A DNA stretch of 53,935 nt from Candidatus Hermodarchaeota archaeon (GTDB taxonomy: Archaea > Asgardarchaeota > Hermodarchaeia > Hermodarchaeales > Hermodarchaeaceae). The stretch lies in the NCBI GenBank assembly GCA_016839365.1, contig JAEOUH010000067.1, forward strand, positions 1 to 53,935. Reading direction: 5' to 3'. The notes beneath the pieces are model-generated. The model was not told the DNA's origin, searched no databases, and was given only the letters and a program-made list of their open reading frames with translations. The position numbers and the translations under genes are program-made. Positions 19,359 through 47,178 of the stretch are shown here, in pieces (position 1 is the stretch's first letter; every line of letters starts with the position of its first letter).

Positions 19359-21566
19359 CTACTTGCGAACTCGAATATGAGAGTCCAGAACAGTCTGGAT
19401 TGGTTTGTCGCTGAAGTGTTGCGTGAGTCGTTCGTACTTCCAGCCGAGGGGTGTCAGGAGGGTATCGGTGGCGCGAAGCAGCAGCTCGGTATACTTGTCC
19501 TTGTCATAGTGGGTCGCCGCTGCGGTGTGGGGGAGTGCCACGCGTCGCAAGGGGTGGCGGGACGTGGAGTCAGTGTGCACGTATTTGATGGCTTGTCCCG
19601 GTTGGATGTCGTGTCCATATCGGATGGCAAGTTTGGCGGCAATGGCTTGGCTGCACTGCTGCTGGTATTCGTGGGGGGATCGGCTGATGTGTTGGGTGAT
19701 GATGAGGTCATCGGGGGTTACTCCACCGCTGTGCAGAAGGTCGAGGTATTCTTTGACGATGTCGAGTAATTGCGGGAGCAGCTGCTGCATCTCATCGGTG
19801 TCTTCGGCACCCGCCAGGCAAGTGAGGAGGTCCATCTGGAGCTGCTTGATGAGCGGTGGGGTATCACGGCGTCGCAGCTCAATGCCCCGGGCTTTGATAG
19901 TACCATCGTGTTTTACCCCGCAGTAGCGCGTCAGCGCGCCGTAGGGTTGATTGCGGCATGGCAAGAACATGATCCATCGGTAACGGCCTTCAAACTCCAT
20001 CGGCAGTCCGGTTACTTCCTCAACCACCTCGCTGAGGGCCAGATAGTCTTCAACGGAGGCGCCAGACTTCTGCAGCCAGACGCAGTCCACAATACCATGG
20101 AGCACTTGAAAGCCCTTGCGTTCACAGACGGCCTTGGTCTGCAGCAGTACGCGTCGGCTGAACGCCGTGACACACTCGTACGCTTCGACGCGACCAAAAC
20201 GTGAGGCTCGAAACCCGAGATAGCCAAAGGAGACGACGAGGAGCCATTTCAACGCAGCTTGCCGCGCCTCATATACGGGGTCATCATGGCGGTGTCGCTT
20301 GTAGTAGGTTCGCTTCTTCAGAATGGGCTCAAGGAAGGTGGGCACGATGCCGCGCTGGCGCCGACACAGCCAATAGCCAACCTCGGGAACCACAGTGGCA
20401 TCATCGGGACAACAATCGCAGAACAAGGCTTCCGGCGAGATGTTGTACTTGACCATCAGCGACGGATACATCGACAGGAAGTCGAGTTCGCCCACATCAC
20501 TGAAAACACCAACGCGCGGGGTGATGACGTGACCACCCCGGTCAGCGTTGAGGAGCTCAAGCCCGGTCTTGTACTCCTCGGGGTCCGCTTTGGTTTCGGG
20601 AATCAGAACGCCTCGATTGAGCGCCTCTTGCATCTGGAGCATATTGATGCCGGTGCCCGGGCTGCTTCGGGCCATCCGCTGGGGTGGAAAGGCGGTAATC
20701 CGACTTGACTCGACGAGCCCCTCAAAGTTGCCAAAAGTCATATGCGACCGATCCAGATGCAAACGTCCATGGAGTAGAAATGGATGAGGACGATAAAACA
20801 CCGGGCCGCCATACCGGAAGACCGCACGACCTGCCGGGAGGGTCTTGTCACTGAAGACATGAGGGGTGTCATCCCGGCTCAGCGAAAACTGGTGCAACAT
20901 CCCCTCCTCTTGAACGCGTCGAATCAGGGTGGGGAAGATCCGGGAGTCACCGTCTTCGGTGAAGATGATGTCTGGATCATGGGTATTAATCCAATCCTGG
21001 AGCATCATGGGCTCTGTGGTCTGCAACGTGTCACCCGAGGAGCTGGTGGCACAAAACAGGTCTTCCCCTTCTAGGCGGAGATCCACAGTATCAAAGGTAG
21101 GAAGAGCATAGTCGAGGGCCCACCGGGAGTCGCAGGAGTCGATGTGGGTAACACGGGTCCCCGACTGGTCGGTGTGAACCTCCACCTGCTCGAAGGGGAA
21201 GCGCCGCTGCTCGAGATACCAAAGTTGGGTTGCGGAGAGATCGCCGTTGAAGACGCGAAAACGGGGGACGGCGAGGGTCTTGATTTCGCGGACGACGCGA
21301 GAGAGTTGGGTGCAGGAGGAGACTGTTACGGCAAGAACTGGTCGTCGCGTGCCCCGCAACTGCAGCCGGTGAAATGCCGGGGTCACAACGCTCACCAGTG
21401 GGTGATTTTCGAACAGCGGCGCATAGTCCTCGAATTGGACGCCGGGTGCATGTAAGTAAAATTGTGGCTGATAAGGCACCTCCAAGGGAACGCATTGTGT
21501 TGCCGTGCGCAACCACAAGACCAAGTGGTCGGGCCGGGGAGTTATGTCGAGGATCCAGCCACGCAT
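19359..21566 (-). CDS. polB2: Family B DNA polymerase, PolB2 type
   Basis: DFLSMYPS (motif A), KWLLVVSFGYLG (motif B), HGIVDCVW replacing YGDTDS (motif C), KARGIELRRRDTP; degenerate exonuclease region. Confidence 0.88.
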   Translation of the reverse strand: MRGWILDITPRPDHLVLWLRTATQCVPLEVPYQPQFYLHAPGVQFEDYAPLFENHPLVSVVTPAFHRLQLRGTRRPVLAVTVSSCTQLSRVVREIKTLAVPRFRVFNGDLSATQLWYLEQRRFPFEQVEVHTDQSGTRVTHIDSCDSRWALDYALPTFDTVDLRLEGEDLFCATSSSGDTLQTTEPMMLQDWINTHDPDIIFTEDGDSRIFPTLIRRVQEEGMLHQFSLSRDDTPHVFSDKTLPAGRAVFRYGGPVFYRPHPFLLHGRLHLDRSHMTFGNFEGLVESSRITAFPPQRMARSSPGTGINMLQMQEALNRGVLIPETKADPEEYKTGLELLNADRGGHVITPRVGVFSDVGELDFLSMYPSLMVKYNISPEALFCDCCPDDATVVPEVGYWLCRRQRGIVPTFLEPILKKRTYYKRHRHDDPVYEARQAALKWLLVVSFGYLGFRASRFGRVEAYECVTAFSRRVLLQTKAVCERKGFQVLHGIVDCVWLQKSGASVEDYLALSEVVEEVTGLPMEFEGRYRWIMFLPCRNQPYGALTRYCGVKHDGTIKARGIELRRRDTPPLIKQLQMDLLTCLAGAEDTDEMQQLLPQLLDIVKEYLDLLHSGGVTPDDLIITQHISRSPHEYQQQCSQAIAAKLAIRYGHDIQPGQAIKYVHTDSTSRHPLRRVALPHTAAATHYDKDKYTELLLRATDTLLTPLGWKYERLTQHFSDKPIQTVLDSHIRVRK

Positions 21567-38408: not shown

Positions 38409-38789
38409 CTACTCAGCAGATTTGATGTGTTTCTTGATTTCTGCTTTGAAGGTGTCCGATGATACAGGCTTAATCAGGTAACCTTTTGCCCCCAAATCCA
38501 TGACCTCTTGCACGGTTTCGTGATCATCGATTGCTGTCAAAGCGACGATGGGGATATCAGGATACTCCTGTGAAACCTGCTGAATGAGGTCGGTACCACG
38601 AATTTTTGGTAATACTAGGTCCACAAAGAAGATGTCTGGTGGATTAGCCCTAAGCTTGGCGAGAGCCTCCTCTCCATCAAGTGCGGTTTCAATCTCATAG
38701 TCACGAAGGAGTAGCTGGGCCGAACGGAGAAAGTGTGGTGAATCATCTGCTAAGAGGATGTGGATTTTATCCGATTTCTTGGAAGCCAA
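38409..38789 (-). CDS. Stand-alone response regulator receiver (CheY-like)
   Basis: LLADD, phospho-Asp in VDLVLP, LTA, YLIKP; probable TTG start at 38789 overlapping the upstream gene. Confidence 0.88.
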   Translation of the reverse strand: MASKKSDKIHILLADDSPHFLRSAQLLLRDYEIETALDGEEALAKLRANPPDIFFVDLVLPKIRGTDLIQQVSQEYPDIPIVALTAIDDHETVQEVMDLGAKGYLIKPVSSDTFKAEIKKHIKSAE

Positions 38790-40233
38790 TTTGAGGGTTT
38801 CCCTCCACAAGGTGTGTGAAGATGCAGTATTGAGGAGTCGAGGGATTGATTCCGTGAAAGACTGTAACTCCTTCCTTAACTGCCAATTGAACATGAATGT
38901 CGGCTAGATCTGCCAGATATCGGTTGATATCCTTAGTGCTGCTATAACCAATGGTGACGGCTAAGTTACTTTCCGTAGCAGTATCATTGGCAATCCGTGT
39001 AGCCCAACGAGGTAATTCTGTTGGACCCAACCACGAATGTAACCAACCAAAGCCCACAATGCTTAGTAGATTTTTACAACCTTGATTTCGGAGTTCTTCT
39101 AACACCATACTCCACGCATTCTCAAGATCGGAGCCTTCACGGAATGCCACGGTCTTGTAATATGGTTCACCCAGTTCTCCGGTTGCACTGGAAACACCTA
39201 AGCTAGTCGCCGCACTAGCGAAGAATCGGAGGCGAGTGTTGAGTTGGTCAACAAATCCGTAGCGAAGTGAGGCTGCTTTAAGTCGACGAAAGCTCAGTTT
39301 GTTTGGTGGAACAATGACAACTCCGCTGTCTTGGCGCAGGAAGTTGGCCACCATACTGAAGACTAAACTGTGAATCGTTTCGTTGGCAACACCTTCAGCG
39401 ACATCAATGAAGAATGTGCTTCCTCGGCGGAAACCGCCAAACACAGTATCTAGTTCTGGGACTCCTGATGAAAAACGACCGCCAGTGTGGGCGATAACTT
39501 CGAAATCGGAAACACGGTTGGCTTGTTCTGCATCAAATGAATGTAAAATGGTAAATCGGCTACCCCTAAGAGAAAACCCGCGCATACCTTGATCTATTGG
39601 GGTCCCACGAAGCTTGATTAACTGAAAACTACGCCACATCCGCTCTGCAGTGAATTCCTTTGTGACACAGACAATACCATCAACGATATGATCTAGCGTC
39701 GATTCTTCAACTCCCTCTACAATGAGAATGATTTTCCCACAGAGGATCCGACCAAGATTCGTTAAAGCGCTGGTCAGGCGCTGAGGGTCAGCCTGTGCGG
39801 CTTCTATAATCGCATCGAACGAGTCTATGACACACACAGGATTGGCAAGGTTTTGTAGTCGATCATTAACGGCGCTAATAAACGTCAACTCGTCGGAGTA
39901 GACCATTCGATTAGTAAAAGGCTCACCGCACTCTAGGGTGGTTTCAGGAACTCCCATGAGTGATGGTGTCGCATCGATGATTTGATTTTCGGAAAGCATC
40001 TGAAATGCCCAAGGAAATTGGGTTTTCAGGCTTGAGCTTGCAACACGTGTTGAAAGGTACACAAAGTTTTCGACCTTAAATTTCTCTGGAAGCGCCTCGG
40101 CAAGATGGCCAAGTAAGGATAAGGCAAGTGTGGATTTCCCAGTACCTGATTTCCCCTTGATGAGAAGGGTTTGTCCCTGTTCTTGGTTCAGGAATTCAGT
40201 GATTTCCCTTGGGAGCGTCACGAGTTCAAGCAC
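38767..40233 (-). CDS. GvpD-like two-domain RecA/KaiC-superfamily ATPase
   Basis: LIKGKSGTGKS, YLSTRV, VIDSFDA, LIKLRG; second domain starts SSGVPELDTVFGG and lacks Walker A. Confidence 0.8.
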   Translation of the reverse strand: MLELVTLPREITEFLNQEQGQTLLIKGKSGTGKSTLALSLLGHLAEALPEKFKVENFVYLSTRVASSSLKTQFPWAFQMLSENQIIDATPSLMGVPETTLECGEPFTNRMVYSDELTFISAVNDRLQNLANPVCVIDSFDAIIEAAQADPQRLTSALTNLGRILCGKIILIVEGVEESTLDHIVDGIVCVTKEFTAERMWRSFQLIKLRGTPIDQGMRGFSLRGSRFTILHSFDAEQANRVSDFEVIAHTGGRFSSGVPELDTVFGGFRRGSTFFIDVAEGVANETIHSLVFSMVANFLRQDSGVVIVPPNKLSFRRLKAASLRYGFVDQLNTRLRFFASAATSLGVSSATGELGEPYYKTVAFREGSDLENAWSMVLEELRNQGCKNLLSIVGFGWLHSWLGPTELPRWATRIANDTATESNLAVTIGYSSTKDINRYLADLADIHVQLAVKEGVTVFHGINPSTPQYCIFTHLVEGNPQIGFQEIG

Positions 40234-40242
40234 CTTTTTCTG

Positions 40243-40782
40243 TTATTTTGTTGAAGCGAGAGTATGTTCTAAGAGATATTCAGAGATGGTTTGAAAGAGT
40301 TCTTTGACATTGGTTCCGTCCTTAGCCGAGGTTTCGAGGTAACCGAGCATATTCAAATTCTTTCCAACTTTCTCAGCTGTGGTAGGTTTTACCATCCGGT
40401 CTTCCATTAAATCTGCCTTGTTGCCAACAAGGAACAAGAGCACTTCAGGTGCACCCTGGCGTACATCTTTCACCCATTCTTTGACACAGTCAAGAGTATC
40501 TTTCCTTGTTAAATCAAACACCACGATTGCGAAGTCAGTGCCGAAAAGATATTGCACACGAACCCGACGGAAGGAGGTTTGACCGGCCAAATCCCAAACT
40601 TGCAGCGATACATCTGAGCCTCTAACGCTGGTCTGAAACGAGGAGATGGCAGCACCAAGAGTTGCTTTGTAGCCCTCATCAAAGGAATCAGTCATGTAGC
40701 GTTTAATCAGTGAAGTTTTCCCCACTGCATAATCACCAATTACTGAAACCTTGAACATGTATCGGCTACTTTTAGGGTTCAT
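40243..40782 (-). CDS. Rab/Ras-like small GTPase
   Basis: GDYAVGKT, WDLAGQ, GNKAD, ETSAK; no C-terminal Cys motif. Confidence 0.92.
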   Translation of the reverse strand: MNPKSSRYMFKVSVIGDYAVGKTSLIKRYMTDSFDEGYKATLGAAISSFQTSVRGSDVSLQVWDLAGQTSFRRVRVQYLFGTDFAIVVFDLTRKDTLDCVKEWVKDVRQGAPEVLLFLVGNKADLMEDRMVKPTTAEKVGKNLNMLGYLETSAKDGTNVKELFQTISEYLLEHTLASTK

Positions 40783-40881
40783 TTTCTATCACCAAACCCA
40801 GTTGATTGTTACCCTCGTGCAGTTCCTTTCTTTTTGTTGAGATTTAAGCTAGTTGGTTGAATGTAGTTGCTCTTGGCTGGT

Positions 40882-41622
40882 TTATTGTATGGGTGGAAGG
40901 TCAGAGACTTGCATACCTTTTTCTCCAATTATGAGAAGAAGGGGGTTCATTTGATGGCTGGTTCCTCGCATTTTGCCGATTTCTATAGTTCGAATGCGGA
41001 CAGTTCCCTGGCTCATAAGCTTCATCATGATGACTCCATCCATTAGAAAGCCTTCGACATCAAACCTACCGATACTATCCCCGGTAGGGCTTTCTACTGC
41101 TACCAGGCAGGTGGCTTGGCTCATGCGAAGGGAACGTACCATATTCAGTAAGTCGTGACGAATCCGGAAGAGATCTTTATGTTGTAGCGTTAAGGTCGAA
41201 ATAGAGTCAATAGCAACACGTTTAGCCTTCACGCGACGAATTTCACGGTGAATCAAGGAGAGAAGGGATTCCATGGTAAATTCTTCTCTACCAAGAACTG
41301 GATGTTCCGGTTTGAGAACCACTCGTTCATTTTGAATCATTGGCGAGGCATCGACCAATGCGATTAACCCCTTATCCATGAGTTCTTGCAAATCCCAGCC
41401 AAATTGTTTCATGTTCCTGATGGTAGAGGTGAGGGTTTCTTCCATTGATACGAGAACACCAGGTTCTTTGAATTGCGAGGCGCCGTTGGCAAGGAACTGG
41501 TTCATTAAAATGGATTTGCCGGTTCCAGGACCGCCACTAATAAGAATCACTGAACCTTTGGGAAATCCACCATGCAAAGCTTCATCTAACCCTGGTACAC
41601 CTGATTTTGTCTTTTCAGCCAC
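40882..41622 (-). CDS. KaiC/RAD55-like ATPase (single domain, motifs intact)
   Basis: SGVPGLD..LHGG, GGPGTGKS, SMEE, RVAIDSIS, KMRGTSH; probable GTG start at 41622. Confidence 0.9.
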   Translation of the reverse strand: MAEKTKSGVPGLDEALHGGFPKGSVILISGGPGTGKSILMNQFLANGASQFKEPGVLVSMEETLTSTIRNMKQFGWDLQELMDKGLIALVDASPMIQNERVVLKPEHPVLGREEFTMESLLSLIHREIRRVKAKRVAIDSISTLTLQHKDLFRIRHDLLNMVRSLRMSQATCLVAVESPTGDSIGRFDVEGFLMDGVIMMKLMSQGTVRIRTIEIGKMRGTSHQMNPLLLIIGEKGMQVSDLPPIQ

Positions 41623-41817
41623 ACTAATCCCCCGATTAGTTAGTCTCCTACTATTCAAGTACCAAGATGGTGGCTTAAGAGGTTTCCGTCTCTCCTCAAT
41701 ATAACCATGAACAACTACAGACTTCCCAAAACCTTTATTCCTACTCAGGAGAGCTAGACTATGAACTTGGCTACAGAGCCAATCTGAGGTGCGAATAAGA
41801 GAACCGAGGGGGCTATC

Positions 41818-42525
41818 GTGATCCTCGACCCAATCCTACAGGGTGGGCTCCCACAGGGAACAAGTATTGCCCTAGTCGGGCAACCAGGGTCGGGAAAAAC
41901 CTGCTTCAGTCTCCAATTTGCGTTGGATACAGCAAAAAAAGGGCTTGATGTCCTCTACCTTTCAACGGAAAATACGCCATCCTCACTTATCCAGCAAGCC
42001 CGTAGTTTTGGTCTTCCTTTTCCTGACCAGCCTGGTAAACTTCCCATTCATTTTGTCGATGCATATAGTTGGAGAATTGGAATGCAAAACGATCCCTTTG
42101 CATTTAATCGTATCAACAATCCAGGAAATCTAAATGAAGTCAATTTGATAATGACGGACCAAGCCAAGATTTTAGATCCAGGTTCTGTTGTCATTATTGA
42201 TTCGGTGTCAGGACTCAGCCTGTCTGCCCCAGATGAGCAACGCATCCGAACCTTTGTTCACAGCATCGCACAACGCATCATTAACCTCAAAAAAATACTT
42301 ATCCTCGTCTTAGAAGACCAAGCCCACGATCCGGAGCTAATTACCAATCTTCGGTCCTTAGTCCAAGGCTCGATTTATACAAAAGTGGTGGATGGCCCCA
42401 AAGGGTCCCTAAGTTGGTTACTCCGCATGTACAGCCTAATTGGAGTACAACATGAGACTAAATGGCACCAAGTGAAAATTGGGAAAAATGGGCTTTTCCT
42501 GCAAGGAGGGACTAGCTATGAGTGA
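41818..42525 (+). CDS. RAD55/KaiC-like ATPase (divergent)
   Basis: LQGGLP, GQPGSGKT, YLSTE, FVDAYS, IIDSVS; no KxR finger. Confidence 0.85.
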   Translation: MILDPILQGGLPQGTSIALVGQPGSGKTCFSLQFALDTAKKGLDVLYLSTENTPSSLIQQARSFGLPFPDQPGKLPIHFVDAYSWRIGMQNDPFAFNRINNPGNLNEVNLIMTDQAKILDPGSVVIIDSVSGLSLSAPDEQRIRTFVHSIAQRIINLKKILILVLEDQAHDPELITNLRSLVQGSIYTKVVDGPKGSLSWLLRMYSLIGVQHETKWHQVKIGKNGLFLQGGTSYE

Positions 42526-43201
42526 CCTTATTAGTCCAGATTTTGTTCCCAAGAGCGCTTTTCAGCTCCCACGCGGGTCACAGCTGCTCTTCATTGGCCC
42601 TCCTGGTGTGGTGAAAACTACTTTAGCTCTGCGTTATTTGGCTGATCGGATTAAAGCCAACGAACCCGCAGTTTTTGCTACCACCCTCTGGTCGCCTGGT
42701 CAAATTCGTCAGACTTTGAGTCGAATCAGTGAGAAAAACGTGGCCTCACAGCTTCAAATTGCCGACGGGGTTTCTTGTGTTACTGCCCAACATTCCTCTG
42801 AACCCTATTCATTTCAAAACCTCTATGACCTCAACACAATTAGCTTGCTTCTTCTTCAAGCCATTGCGGACCTTAAGAATGGTCACCTCTGCCTAGATAA
42901 TTTAACAACACTGATGACCTATTCGGCACCTCATTCAGTCATTAAATTTCTTCAAGTCCTCTGTGCTCGGGTCAAGGATCGTGGAGTAACGGGAATTTAT
43001 CTCATTGAGGAAGGTGTACATGCAAAAAATGTTGTAACGACATTGCGATTCTCTGTGGATGGGGTGGTAGAAATCTTTGATGAAGAAGAGAAAGACCAGC
43101 TAAAACACAAAATTCGGTTACTTCATCTACGAGGTGCTCAGGTCGACACTCGCTGGCTAATCTTTGATGAAACCAAGCCATTACAATGGGCTGAAGAATA
43201 A
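42518..43201 (+). CDS. RAD55/KaiC-like ATPase with degenerate motifs
   Basis: GPPGVVKT, TTLW (no catalytic Glu), CLDNLT, VDGVVE, HLRG; ATG 42518 after GGAGG. Confidence 0.8.
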   Translation: MSDLISPDFVPKSAFQLPRGSQLLFIGPPGVVKTTLALRYLADRIKANEPAVFATTLWSPGQIRQTLSRISEKNVASQLQIADGVSCVTAQHSSEPYSFQNLYDLNTISLLLLQAIADLKNGHLCLDNLTTLMTYSAPHSVIKFLQVLCARVKDRGVTGIYLIEEGVHAKNVVTTLRFSVDGVVEIFDEEEKDQLKHKIRLLHLRGAQVDTRWLIFDETKPLQWAEE

Positions 43202-43262
43202 ACCAATGGTCTATTCTATATTGGGCTAGAACGAAATGAAGTGAAACCATAATTTGCCCACA

Positions 43263-43880
43263 TTAGGATTGAACCAGGTTTTCGGTATTACTTGTAAGCT
43301 TTTCAGTGGTTGATGATTTGACAACGTCGCCGTTCTTAGGTTTTGGCGGAAAGAGGTAGTAAATCATGTCTTCGAAGGTTTCAATGAAGCCTGGCACTAG
43401 GAAAATCGCCACAATACAAAGGACAAAAACTCCCACGACACCTAAAATGAAGCTCATAGGATAGTGAGCAAGTTCCCAAGGGAGAATACCCATGTAGACA
43501 AGCCAAATTTCGAAAACTACTCTTAAGACATTGGCTACAAACAGAAGAATAGTGACAACGGCAACGGCAAGCCCTTTCCGGGACCAGGTTCCACGCGGCA
43601 GTGGAAGAATTAGACCCATGAAGACTGCAATTACTTGAATGCCTGTACATTCACGAACAATTTGGTAATACTGGAATCCTATCACATAGACATAGACTAC
43701 TCCAAAAATCCAATCGACCAGAGCCACAGATGGAATTCCTATCCAGCTAAGTAATACAGCGGAGACAACCGCAGTTGGAATAGCAAGAAAGAAGGGTTGG
43801 GGCAGGAAATAAACTAAAAGGGTTATAGTGATAGCAATAATCAAGTACAGGATTAATGCCCTAGGAGTCGGTCGTTCCAT
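43263..43880 (-). CDS. Archaeosortase/exosortase family protein
   Basis: IVRECTGI (Cys), ANVLRV (Arg), LAHY (His) in a multi-TM protein; start set at MERPTP because the upstream 75 codons look like antisense to a TM gene. Confidence 0.8.
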   Translation of the reverse strand: MERPTPRALILYLIIAITITLLVYFLPQPFFLAIPTAVVSAVLLSWIGIPSVALVDWIFGVVYVYVIGFQYYQIVRECTGIQVIAVFMGLILPLPRGTWSRKGLAVAVVTILLFVANVLRVVFEIWLVYMGILPWELAHYPMSFILGVVGVFVLCIVAIFLVPGFIETFEDMIYYLFPPKPKNGDVVKSSTTEKLTSNTENLVQS

Positions 43881-44091
43881 GTCTTCTAATGAAGCCTCAG
43901 CACCCTTTTCTGGCTCATCTCGATTAGCTATCGGTTTTTCCGTTGTGATTGGGTTCACCGTCCTTGTTGCAGGAGGCGTAGCCTTCCTATTGAACTTGCA
44001 GTTTCTTGGCGAGATTTTAGTGCTTGCCGGGGTGTTTCTGTTTGCTTTTACCTTGATTTGCTGGTTAGCAGCACGCCGGCGCCGGAAATAG
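43879..44091 (+). CDS. Small 2-TM protein ending in ARRRRK
   Basis: Two clean TM helices and a polybasic tail; ATG overlaps the archaeosortase start codon. Confidence 0.5.
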   Translation: MSSNEASAPFSGSSRLAIGFSVVIGFTVLVAGGVAFLLNLQFLGEILVLAGVFLFAFTLICWLAARRRRK

Positions 44092-44172
44092 TAAGCGTGT
44101 AACACACCAGTTCCTTATTACACTTCGTTTTACACCATCATAATCACTTATTCTGTATTGTAAAACCTGTGA

Positions 44173-47100
44173 TCACGTCCACATTGGTAAGAGAAAAATG
44201 AATTTTGCACCTTGATCATGGGTATCTTTGACTCGGTCTTCGACCCAGATTCGACCTCCATATCGATCGATAATGCGCTGAACAAGTGTCAAACCAATAC
44301 CAGATCCCTGAGTCTTCGCACCCACCTTTTGGGTGTAGCGGGCAAAAATCCGTTCTTTCAGGTCATCAGGGATTCCTGGGCCATGATCACTGACCTCTAT
44401 CCTGAGGAAACGTTTATTGATGTCTGGATGGATTTTCACTTCAAGGTCGACTTTTTCGCTACGATCAAATTTCACGGCGTTATGTAGTAGATTATAAAAT
44501 AGATCCATAAGGAAGTCATCTGCTAAGACCTTGAATTCTTCGGGATGAATGTTGGTATCAACGAGGATGGTCTTTTTGGGAAAAGCTTGTTTAATTGCTT
44601 CCAAGGCTGAACGAAAGTCAGGTTCAATGTCGCGAACCTCCATAAGGATTTGAACCTCATCCATCCCTGAGAACTTCTTGACGCGTCCAATTAAAGCGGC
44701 ACTTCGCTCAACTTGCTCTAAGGACAATTGAAGTTGTGTGCGTAGCTTTTCAGGGAGTTCTGGGTTCATCAGCTGTAACTCTATTCCAGAGAGGATGGCT
44801 TGGTTGATATTGTTGAGGTCGTGAGCCATCAGGTCTGTGAAGAACTCTGATCGCGCTTTAGCCTCCCTCAGGGCTTGTTCGGCTTGTTTTCGTTCGGTGA
44901 TGTTACGAGCAACAATGATGTATCCTGATGGATTACCCTCGGCTCCAATGAGGAGTGATGCACTAATTTCCGCTGGAAAAGTCGAACCATCTTTTTGAAT
45001 AAGGGTGAAGAGAAGGGGAACCGACGGTCCATGCTCTCTGGTGTTTTTCAAAGTTTCAATGGCTCGATTTCGCTCATCGGGTACGATGAAATCAAAGCAA
45101 TTTTTGCCCCATAATTCAGCAGGTCTATTAAAACCTAACAATTGAACGGCACGTTCATTGACTAAGACAATCACTCCATCTGGATCCGTAAGCGTGATGG
45201 CATCAGGAGATGTTTCAACTAGTGATCGATACCGTGATTCAGATTCTCGCAGGGTTTGGTCAGCCCGCATACGTTCCGTGATGTCACGGCATACTCCTCG
45301 ATAACCGATTAGGTTTCTCTGCTTATCAAAGACTGGTCGACCACTGCCTTCCAGAATCACAATGTTGCCATCTCGGTGAACGAAGCGATCCACAAGATTC
45401 TTGAACGGTTTCTGCTTTTCAACCGTTTCAGTGAATATAACCTCACCATTTTCTAAACTCGTTGAATCCATATAATCGAAAAAGGATCTGCCAATGATTT
45501 GTCCAGCGGTATAGCCGAGCATGTCTTCAACCGCACTGTTTGAATAGACGAGTCTTCCTTCACGATCTATTTCCCATACCCAATCGGTAGTGTCCTCTAC
45601 GAGGGAGCGGAATTTTTCCTCTGAGGCGCGGAGACCCTCTTCAGCAATTTTTCGTTCAGTAATATCTTCTCCAGAACTTAGAATACCTGTGATATTTCCT
45701 TCCTCATCTTCTAGTAGAGTAGTATGCCAAAGAATCATCCGCTCGGTGCCTTGTTTAGTCTTGATAGGATTTTCAACATATTCGCTTAGCTGAAATGTTC
45801 CCGCCATAGCCCGATCAAACCGATCTTTCATTTCCTCACGAAGTTTTTCAGGGATACACAAATCGAAGTAGTTCTGCTCTATCATTTCATCTTCTGAGTA
45901 CCCGAATATCTCGAGGGTCTTTTGATTAACTAGAGTGATATTCCCTCTAGTATCAATTGTAATGAACATAACCCCTGCCATGTCCAGATACCGTTGAGCC
46001 CAATCCCTTTCTAACCGGATGGCTTCTTCGATCATTTTTCGCTCATCAATATCCATGATCGTTACTTGCGTAGCAAGTTTACCTTGGTATTCAATAATAG
46101 ATAATGAAAGTTCAAACCAACGTTCGGTACCATCCTTTTGAATTCCTCGCAACTCCATGCTGGATGAAACCGGTTCGCCATGAATGATTTTCTGCAAATG
46201 TTCCAATGGAACATTCCTATCATCTGAATGAATGATATCAAATATCTGCCACGGACCAAAAGCTAAGATTTCCTCTTCATTGTAACCACTAATTCGAAGA
46301 AACGCTGCGTTGGCGAATATGACCTTTCCATTTTGGATGATAAGTAAACCTTGAATTGATTGATCAACAAGTTTGTGATATGCTTCTTCGACCTTTGTTC
46401 GCTCTGTGATGTCACGAGTGACCTCAACACAACCTACTAAATTATCACTCTCATCATAAAGCGGATATCCACGCACATGCCATACGCGACCGTCAGGTGT
46501 ACGCATCTCATGTTCTTGAAAAGAACCAGTTTCACTAGCCAGAACAATAGGGCAGTCAAAGCATGGTGTATCCCGCTGATTCCACACTTCGTAGCAGTGT
46601 TTACCAATGATTTTCTCTACCGTGCTATTCACCGATTCAGCAGCAGCACGGTTAGCCCAAATGATGCGGTTCTCCAGATCTTGAAATATAACGTGTTCTG
46701 AAATACTGTCCAGAATCACAGATTTTTCCTCTTCTGATTTTTTCAATGCATTTTGGCTTTGCTTGAGTTCATCTTGCTTTTGACGTAGCTCAGTAATATC
46801 TTGCTGAATCGAAATGGAATAGGCCAAGGAGTCATCAGGCTTACGAATAGCGTTCGCACTTAAGAGAACGATGCGCTGCTCACCAGTTTTGGTTTGGATA
46901 ATGAGTTCTTCATCAGTAATTGTACCCTCTTTCTTCCATGAAATAAACAGATCTTTGACCTTCTCCTCGCATTCTGGCGCGTAGATAGTCCGAATGTGTT
47001 TACCTATTAACTCTGTTCGTGTGTAACCTAACACCTTGAGAGCAGCTTTGTTGATGTCCAAGATGATTCCCTGAGGTGAAACCATATAACAGTAGAGGGG

Positions 47101-47178
47101 GGCATTTTCAAAAAAGAGTCGAAACCGTGGTTCGTCGTCACCGTTGATGATATTGTAGTCTCGCTCATGTGAAGACAT
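44173..47178 (-). CDS. Cytoplasmic sensor histidine kinase with six PAS/PAC domains
   Basis: Six repeats ending DITE/DIDE/NITE; H-box MAHDLNN, N-box NLLHNAVKF, DHGPGI, GSGIGL; no TM segments. Confidence 0.93.
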   Translation of the reverse strand: MSSHERDYNIINGDDEPRFRLFFENAPLYCYMVSPQGIILDINKAALKVLGYTRTELIGKHIRTIYAPECEEKVKDLFISWKKEGTITDEELIIQTKTGEQRIVLLSANAIRKPDDSLAYSISIQQDITELRQKQDELKQSQNALKKSEEEKSVILDSISEHVIFQDLENRIIWANRAAAESVNSTVEKIIGKHCYEVWNQRDTPCFDCPIVLASETGSFQEHEMRTPDGRVWHVRGYPLYDESDNLVGCVEVTRDITERTKVEEAYHKLVDQSIQGLLIIQNGKVIFANAAFLRISGYNEEEILAFGPWQIFDIIHSDDRNVPLEHLQKIIHGEPVSSSMELRGIQKDGTERWFELSLSIIEYQGKLATQVTIMDIDERKMIEEAIRLERDWAQRYLDMAGVMFITIDTRGNITLVNQKTLEIFGYSEDEMIEQNYFDLCIPEKLREEMKDRFDRAMAGTFQLSEYVENPIKTKQGTERMILWHTTLLEDEEGNITGILSSGEDITERKIAEEGLRASEEKFRSLVEDTTDWVWEIDREGRLVYSNSAVEDMLGYTAGQIIGRSFFDYMDSTSLENGEVIFTETVEKQKPFKNLVDRFVHRDGNIVILEGSGRPVFDKQRNLIGYRGVCRDITERMRADQTLRESESRYRSLVETSPDAITLTDPDGVIVLVNERAVQLLGFNRPAELWGKNCFDFIVPDERNRAIETLKNTREHGPSVPLLFTLIQKDGSTFPAEISASLLIGAEGNPSGYIIVARNITERKQAEQALREAKARSEFFTDLMAHDLNNINQAILSGIELQLMNPELPEKLRTQLQLSLEQVERSAALIGRVKKFSGMDEVQILMEVRDIEPDFRSALEAIKQAFPKKTILVDTNIHPEEFKVLADDFLMDLFYNLLHNAVKFDRSEKVDLEVKIHPDINKRFLRIEVSDHGPGIPDDLKERIFARYTQKVGAKTQGSGIGLTLVQRIIDRYGGRIWVEDRVKDTHDQGAKFIFLLPMWT

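Follow-up and report, generated by a model that had tools for sequence, protein, structure and literature searches.

A Hermodarchaeota gene island of KaiC-family ATPases, a receiver and a Rab-like GTPase, and its counterparts in other Asgard archaea

The ring ATPase KaiC recruits small partners with switch folds, such as KaiB and the pseudo-receiver domain of CikA, and haloarchaeal GvpD acts on GvpE in a P-loop-dependent manner. Makarova, Galperin and Koonin, writing in mBio in 2017, reportedly described the KaiC-like ATPases of archaea as 'signal transduction hubs'. The view of these ATPases as archaeal signalling hubs takes in inactivated KaiC domains and, in Methanosarcinaceae, fusions of KaiC to receivers (PMC5847659). 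Here we analyse an eight-gene island in a stretch of 53,935 nucleotides (nt), hereafter the window (contig JAEOUH010000067.1, assembly GCA_016839365.1), from Candidatus Hermodarchaeota archaeon, an Asgard archaeon whose genus includes Ca. Hermodarchaeum yapensis. The island holds four of the ten KaiC-family genes of the host genome (2.2 Mb, 93 contigs, 84% complete), together with a stand-alone receiver, a Rab-like GTPase, an archaeosortase-family membrane protein and a six-PAS histidine kinase.

In bacteria, small GTPases act together with kinases and receivers (PMC4316618). Asgard archaea carry dozens of Ras-superfamily GTPases, whose role bears on the origin of eukaryotic cell organization, and conserved neighbourhoods of these genes are rare (PMC10933270; bioRxiv 10.1101/2020.10.19.343400), so that their regulators and effectors are hard to assign. 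One reported Asgard operon encodes a LAMTOR1-like Roadblock protein, a Rab-like GTPase and a DENN protein (bioRxiv 10.1101/2020.10.19.343400), and the GTPase genes of MK-D1 generally lie outside operons with Roadblock, longin and TRAPPC3 genes (PMC10933270); neither account mentions KaiC.

The island resembles archaeal KaiC hubs in that expanded single-domain and inactivated KaiC ATPases cluster with receivers, PAS domains and kinases, and differs from them in the Ras-superfamily GTPases that recur in Asgard archaea beside a two-domain, GvpD-like subfamily. As in haloarchaeal GvpD, to which the matching Pfam models refer, a P-loop domain is followed by a second region; however, a receiver and a GTPase stand in place of the activator GvpE among the partner genes, and the window contains no gvp genes, which agrees with the first-pass annotation of this DNA, where gas-vesicle structural genes had been noted as missing. 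The GvpD-like ATPase shares the tandem RecA-like two-domain fold of cyanobacterial KaiC, whereas its second domain has no P-loop, circadian equivalog cut-offs are far off and the partners KaiA and KaiB are missing: KaiA is not present, and the host genome, at its 84% completeness, has no match to the KaiB family (PF07689), as had also been annotated. The actinobacterial conservon (CvnA-D) and MglA/MglB/RomR likewise tie a Ras-superfamily GTPase, through gene location or physical contact, to a histidine kinase or receiver (PMC4316618). By contrast, the GTPase described here is Rab-like and not MglA-like, KaiC-family ATPases are central, and no Roadblock/MglB gene occurs among the island's genes or elsewhere in the window. 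The Roadblock/Rab/DENN operon, one of few reported cases in which the neighbourhood of an Asgard small GTPase is conserved, has other partner genes than the island.

Literature searches that paired KaiC with Asgard archaea, small GTPases or Roadblock, and GvpD with Asgard archaea, returned no link between KaiC-family proteins and small GTPases; a mention in the 2017 hub paper is possible. The island had been put forward as a circuit not recognised as any described system, which holds in searchable papers for the link to small GTPases and fails for the coupling of KaiC to two-component systems, already proposed (PMC5847659).

The island's coordinates and domains, as first annotated for all eight genes, are borne out by the list of open reading frames (ORFs), Pfam and NCBIfam. 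Its features, in window positions and with lengths in amino acids (aa) or base pairs (bp), are:

38409-38789 (most likely start), minus strand: stand-alone CheY-like receiver (Pfam Response_reg, 86.8 bits)
38767-40233, minus strand: GvpD-like two-domain KaiC-family ATPase, 488 aa, GTG start (Pfam GvpD_P-loop, KaiC and GvpD_bR2)
40243-40782, minus strand: soluble Rab-like Ras-superfamily GTPase (Pfam Ras, 155 bits)
40882-41658, minus strand: KaiC1, a single-domain KaiC-like ATPase (Pfam KaiC, 219 bits)
41659-41817, no strand: divergent intergenic region of 159 bp between KaiC1 and the degenerate-KaiC pair
41818-42525, plus strand: 'Rad55a', KaiC-family (Pfam KaiC, 96.5 bits)
42479-43201, plus strand: 'Rad55b', KaiC and DUF7504 (Pfam KaiC, 63.7 bits; DUF7504, 50.5 bits)
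43263-44105, minus strand: archaeosortase-family membrane protein (TIGR04178 signature, 42.4 bits; cut-off 23)
44173-47178, minus strand: soluble histidine kinase (six PAS stretches; HATPase_c, 82 bits)

A conserved unit of a receiver and KaiC-family ATPases

The conserved unit consists of the receiver, the GvpD-like ATPase, KaiC1 and a divergent pair of one partly and one fully degenerate KaiC. It extends to another Asgard family, whose proteins from loci L163 (GCA_024275415.1, a Thorarchaeota-like genome) and L162 (GCA_030669595.1) form a fully supported clade with the window's GvpD-like ATPase (100/100 in the careful tree). L163 encodes a PAS kinase and a PAS protein and then, on one strand, the receiver, the GvpD-like ATPase and KaiC1; Rad55a-like, Rad55b-like and Ras GTPase genes diverge from these, with a HisKA-receiver gene after them. 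Trees recover one-to-one orthology with the window for KaiC1 (support 99), Rad55a (100) and Rad55b (99). At L162, the receiver and GvpD-like genes diverge from a Ras GTPase gene, beyond which lie an uncharacterised gene of 272 aa and a PAS kinase gene. PAS kinases adjoin the orthologous modules in L163/L261 and L162/L266; PAS histidine kinases adjoin the conserved unit in three lineages, and a Ras-superfamily GTPase lies within or beside it in most. Conservation of the neighbourhood across Asgard genomes had been named as a check to make, and the ATPase, receiver, kinase and GTPase genes turned out to be linked well beyond close relatives. The neighbourhood is real, conserved and more than a product of chance.

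Within the Hermod family, the order KaiC1, GTPase, GvpD-like ATPase, receiver is found in every genome of genus g1 that has a GvpD-like gene on a long enough contig. The stretch from IscU to acetyl-CoA synthetase (ACS) is collinear in the six loci with long flanks, and the seventh locus, L024, leaves its contig past KaiC1. In the three genomes of the sister genus g2, receiver, GvpD-like ATPase, KaiC1 and divergent pair are followed by the archaeosortase and a divergent PAS kinase. The divergent arrangement around the 159-bp region, presumed to be a bidirectional promoter region, is kept in g1, in g2 and in L163. The archaeosortase gene is syntenic in g1 and g2 only, being absent from L163, L162 and L270, and across these two genera IscSU, ACS and acyl-CoA dehydrogenase genes are syntenic too.

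Pfam confirmed the minus-strand run of KaiC-like ATPase, Rab-like GTPase, GvpD-like double ATPase and receiver on which the first-pass annotation had built. The close spacing also stood: 9 bp separate the stop of the GTPase gene, which lies upstream, from the GTG start of the GvpD-like gene, and the ATPase and receiver genes overlap, with a refined receiver start. The longest receiver ORF (38409-38894, minus strand) overlaps the GvpD-like gene by 128 nt, and starting at the TTG at 38789 gives 126 aa and an overlap of 23 nt. At orthologous loci, receivers are called at 127-132 aa and overlap the ATPase gene by 23 nt in L261, L268, L269 and L270 and by 38 nt in L262. Because the TTG reproduces this 23-nt overlap, it is most likely the start, which shortens the predicted receiver from 161 to 126 aa. 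The sequence shows an acidic pair together with the phospho-acceptor Asp, the Thr and the Lys, and the protein has no output domain.

The GvpD-like ATPase scores above the cut-offs of GvpD_P-loop (PF07088; 51.9 bits, cut-off 24), KaiC (46.5 bits) and GvpD_bR2 (PF20440; 33.5 bits, cut-off 27.9). In an alignment of 12 sequences, Walker A, Walker B and Glu are invariant in the N-terminal half, and the P-loop (Walker A) of the C-terminal half is lost, so the N-terminal domain is predicted to be active and the C-terminal domain degenerate. A profile of the subfamily matches full-length KaiC into its second domain (E = 1e-25). An AlphaFold2 model (predicted local distance difference test, pLDDT, 83.6; predicted template-modelling score, pTM, 0.78) has tandem RecA-like domains and aligns to KaiC over about 500 columns (Foldseek E = 1e-24). 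The template-modelling (TM) score of this alignment is low, at 0.38, owing to a domain orientation that differs from that in KaiC. Circadian KaiC equivalog models score far below their cut-offs (PRK09302, 31 bits against 408; TIGR02655, 20 bits against 546).

KaiC1 has an intact P-loop (GGPGTGKS) and a tandem pair of catalytic Glu residues (ME-E motif), kept in its orthologues. Rad55a has intact Walker A and B motifs and one of the two catalytic Glu left. Rad55b has no catalytic Glu left, and its Walker A motif has degenerated to GPPGVVKT, with KA or KI in the orthologues; by these features it is predicted to be an inactivated KaiC. An alternative Rad55b start, the ATG at 42518, would shorten its overlap with Rad55a to 8 nt. 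The pair had been annotated as two overlapping, divergent RAD55-like genes; their position stands, and the recombination-type label does not, as both are of the KaiC-family signalling type, one with a destroyed P-loop. The RecA-fold ATPases of the island miss the RadA and RadB equivalogs of NCBIfam (RadB, 39 bits against 172; RadA (sms), 27-34 bits against 403).

The histidine kinase carries the H-box MAHDLNN and the N, G1 and G2 boxes. It has no hydrophobic segment and is therefore soluble, which together with the Pfam matches upholds its annotation as a soluble six-PAS histidine kinase. From its co-location in three lineages, it is likely to be the phosphodonor of the receiver. The archaeosortase-family protein, placed in that family by the TIGR04178 match in agreement with the initial call, has about seven hydrophobic segments and a conserved, unusual N-terminal cytoplasmic extension of about 75 aa. 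It falls below the cut-offs of specific subfamilies (heimdallarchaeosortase, 52 bits against 130; ArtH, 41.6 bits against 200).

Small GTPases beside GvpD-like and KaiC-family genes

The island's GTPase is closest among solved structures in the PDB to Rab6, Ypt6 and Rab1 (E about 1e-35). Its G1 (GDYAVGKT), G3 (DLAGQ) and G4 (NKAD) motifs are present; the C terminus (...EHTLASTK) has no Cys prenylation motif, and the protein has no hydrophobic segment. Three Hermod lineages have orthologues (67-89% identity) encoded upstream of the GvpD-like gene, two of them at the same position. Across Hermod lineages the GTPase is better conserved than the ATPase (67-72% against 58-64% identity), which points to purifying selection on it. 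At L268, where an orthologous GTPase gene lies upstream of the ATPase gene, identities to the window are 72% for the GTPase and 64% for the ATPase; at L270 they are 67% and 58%, and although an LplA gene and a small ORF have been inserted nearby, the GTPase gene still stands beside the ATPase gene.

Outside the Hermod family, different GTPases occupy such positions. The GTPases of L162 and L163 are mutually orthologous (support 100) and share only 33-35% identity with the window GTPase, which has closer relatives in those genomes. As they are not orthologues of the window GTPase, the same ATPase-receiver module is combined with GTPases of different clades from lineage to lineage. The GTPase tree places linked GTPases in separate clades, with support of 98 for Hermod, 100 for the f6 module, 99 for family f14 and 100 for the Thorarchaeota-type locus described below; those of family f27 are a probable fifth group and do not make up one supported clade. 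By this tree, the GTPases linked to the module in different lineages are not orthologues of one another.

The GvpD-like subfamily is widespread: its profile has hits in 159 of the 400 Asgard genomes searched (E <= 1e-15), with full-length matches in about 20 families, often in several copies per genome. We surveyed the neighbours of 71 GvpD-like genes outside the Hermod family with custom profiles (60 added loci and 8 distant loci; selected loci checked with Pfam). A same-strand small GTPase gene directly follows the GvpD-like gene at 10 of the 71, namely three of ten in f14 and all seven in f27, with gaps of -42 to +38 nt. Receivers hold this place in 16 cases, spread over six families, and KaiC-family genes in five. 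On the ATPase tree the type of partner tracks clades, with two changes for the GTPase and four for the receiver. In different clades, either a receiver or a GTPase gene stands immediately downstream of the GvpD-like gene, which suggests that the two are interchangeable switch partners of GvpD-like ATPases. In the remaining cases, the neighbours were heterogeneous housekeeping genes or nothing recurrent, save in one genus with a beta-CASP protein.

Family f27 includes genomes assembled as single closed contigs. In one of them (GCA_021498095.1, 4.36 Mb), genes for a GvpD-like ATPase of 489 aa, a Ras-like GTPase of 168 aa and a RagA/Gtr1-like GTPase of 428 aa follow one another, with a second RagA-like gene nearby. 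A Ras-like GTPase of 166-168 aa comes directly after the GvpD-like gene at all seven f27 loci (L182-L186, L201 and L202; L184:2890-6346, the same as L259, belongs to GCA_021498095.1), and a Gtr1/RagA-like GTPase of 428-450 aa is third at the four loci where the third gene could be annotated.

Small GTPases account for about 1% of the host's genes (22 matches in 2.2 Mb), and repeated chance adjacency is therefore unlikely. As a rough estimate, fewer than one adjacency to a GTPase would be expected by chance across about 20 ATPase clades, each offering two neighbour slots; at least four were seen, with the qualification that related genomes are not independent samples.

Further support comes from a different arrangement, found in a search seeded with the window GTPase. 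Its nearest relatives outside Hermod (35-38% identity) lie in a locus with KaiC-family genes, in 29 of 30 sampled loci; most of these are titled Thorarchaeota, and some Promethearchaeota or without a lineage name. The locus is laid out as follows:

L059:1230-8342 (loci L052-L118), strand one: Roadblock/LC7 protein, thioredoxin-fold protein of 109 aa (weak KaiB match), KaiC1-like ATPase, inactivated KaiC, tetratricopeptide-repeat (TPR) protein
L059:1230-8342, divergent strand: Rab-like GTPase, WD40 protein, second Ras GTPase

Its KaiC genes are paralogues, not orthologues, of those in the module, and the locus is independent support for the link between KaiC-family proteins and small GTPases.

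The residue equivalent to Ras Gly12, in the P-loop near window position 40735, is not Gly in most module-linked GTPases (window, L162, L163 and L182-L184). All 11 Hermod orthologues have Tyr there (GDYAVGKT), the f6 module has Pro (GEPNVGKS), and most f27 proteins have Asp (GSDGVGKT). Gly is kept in the f14-linked proteins (GDGMVGKT) and in most other sampled Asgard paralogues. Such substitutions may point to an unusual control of GTP hydrolysis. The closest same-genome paralogue of the island GTPase (46% identity; G000:C36:847-1359, L208:661-1359) also has GDYAVGKT; the match runs across an in-frame TAG close to the start, and the ORF as called has an N-terminal extension of 67 aa. Other proteins, too, directly follow GvpD-like genes. 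In one genus of family f19 (L189-L193 and L203), a protein of about 730 aa does so in six of seven genomes, in the position of the receiver slot of sister clades; Pfam identifies one copy as metallo-beta-lactamase/beta-CASP. In f14, a protein of 210-216 aa follows a GvpD-like paralogue (L151:4296-4925, L155:4304-4945 and L156:4309-4956). It has no Pfam match in the one copy examined (L155) and is a possible further partner type.

Proposed mechanism and competing explanations

The recurrent gene context gives good support to a functional coupling of KaiC-family ATPases with small GTPases and two-component signalling. On this evidence we lean towards functional coupling of the whole set, GTPase included; coupling within the core of receiver, ATPase and KaiC is likelier than that, and any specific mechanism much less likely. 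The island would be a variant of the archaeal KaiC hub, a cytoplasmic signalling module with KaiC-family ATPases at its centre. An intracellular cue sensed by the soluble six-PAS kinase would lead to phosphorylation of the receiver, which would bind the GvpD-like ATPase whose gene its own overlaps by 23 nt. The Rab-like GTPase would be a second switch: it would bind this ATPase too, or the ATPase would load or unload it, so that the ATPase could integrate phosphorylation state and GTP state. KaiC1 and its two degenerate paralogues may form partner rings or mixed rings. By analogy with the action of GvpD on GvpE and with partner recruitment by KaiC, the module may, as its output, capture or release a target protein in an ATP-dependent way.

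The recurrent, tight neighbourhood names candidate partners for Rab/Ras-like GTPases of Asgard archaea, an ATPase family and a phospho-receiver, which are all soluble and can therefore be expressed and tested in vitro. Within the KaiC-hub idea, GTP would join phosphorylation and ATP as a third class of switch. A broader proposal, which we put forward tentatively and consider doubtful, is that the GvpD-like ATPases of Asgard archaea are devoted to partnering small switch proteins, with receivers and Ras GTPases as interchangeable subunits, and that the ATPase reads, loads or resets the nucleotide state of Rab/Ras/Rag-like proteins. If true, this would be an ATP-driven regulation of GTPases in the lineage that gave rise to eukaryotes, unlike that by eukaryotic GTPase-activating proteins (GAPs), guanine-nucleotide exchange factors (GEFs) and guanine-nucleotide dissociation inhibitors (GDIs) and unlike that by bacterial MglB.

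Several results weigh against coupling of the GTPase to the rest. No GTPase gene is found at the g2 locus, since the gap between KaiC1 and the GvpD-like gene is only 112-129 nt there, and the GTPase is thus dispensable. The first-pass annotation had included the GTPase in the proposed circuit; it is not obligatory, g2 having the same operon without it. The best GTPase hits in g2 (44-46% identity) group with other paralogues of the host genome. The ATPase tree from the careful search leaves g2, L270 and the g1 group in a basal trichotomy, and both a loss of the GTPase in g2 and a gain after the g2 split appear possible. About 40 of the 71 surveyed GvpD-like genes adjoin neither a GTPase nor a receiver gene. 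Synteny within the family proves little, because the housekeeping flanks are syntenic as well. No fusion of a GvpD-like protein to a GTPase or receiver was found in a search that long proteins crowded, which makes this weak evidence. A sister relationship of the Hermod GTPase to the f27-linked GTPases, supported at 96 under LG+G4, was gone under the C20 site-heterogeneous model, and the grouping is likely to be long-branch attraction.

In an alternative explanation, only the receiver, the KaiC-family ATPases and the kinase form a unit and the Rab-like GTPase is a passenger, one of many duplicated Asgard GTPase genes, that landed in an intergenic gap, is co-transcribed and acts elsewhere. It is in keeping with the empty site in g2, with the 22 GTPase paralogues of the host genome, with the lack of orthology between linked GTPases of different lineages and with the tentative sister of the island GTPase being a paralogue in the same genome (support 85). 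We nevertheless consider it unlikely: at least four separate GTPase clades stand beside GvpD-like or KaiC genes in distant lineages, the spacing of 9 bp is tight, conservation of the GTPase exceeds that of the ATPase across Hermod lineages, and at the rearranged L270 locus the GTPase gene has stayed with the ATPase gene. The archaeosortase, for its part, could be the output of the module, with signalling that steers the processing or anchoring of surface proteins. In both Hermod genera its gene separates the degenerate-KaiC pair from the kinase gene, and the unusual cytoplasmic extension of the protein is conserved; however, this link is confined to one family, in which IscSU, ACS and acyl-CoA dehydrogenase genes are just as syntenic, and the orthologous loci L163, L162 and L270 do without it, so that we regard this role as improbable.

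Two further explanations are very improbable. If the four RecA-fold ATPases were recombination or repair paralogues of the RadA/Rad55/RadB type, with incidental signalling neighbours, the initial RAD55-like label and the weak RadB and RadA hits (39 and 27 bits) would be accounted for; yet KaiC (PF06745) is the best family of all four, GvpD-specific models score above their cut-offs, the RadA/RadB equivalog cut-offs are missed 4- to 15-fold, receiver genes overlap GvpD-like genes in many lineages and the P-loop of one paralogue is destroyed. A KaiABC-like timing oscillator, or a true gas-vesicle regulator of the GvpD type, would fit the KaiC-like fold and sequence and the GvpD_P-loop and GvpD_bR2 matches. 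Against an oscillator stand the missing KaiB match, the low circadian equivalog scores and the second domain, which without a P-loop does not have the kinase site of KaiC CII; against a gas-vesicle regulator stands the lack of gvp genes in the window and of a neighbouring gvpE.

Flanking genes and other features of the window

The genes that flank the island are housekeeping genes, with TusA, DsrE, IscS and IscU on one side and ACS on the other. An Rfam scan of the window gave no match. Promoter and terminator scans stayed at background level, with bacterial-type models that do not apply to archaea. On a Hermod-type contig from the Guaymas Basin (L270:117-3145), another Ras GTPase and two TackOD1-domain proteins adjoin the degenerate-KaiC pair, in the place that the archaeosortase and the kinase occupy in the window. 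A peak in G+C content at 19359-21566 (0.565, against about 0.45 elsewhere) coincides with a minus-strand ORF of 735 aa.

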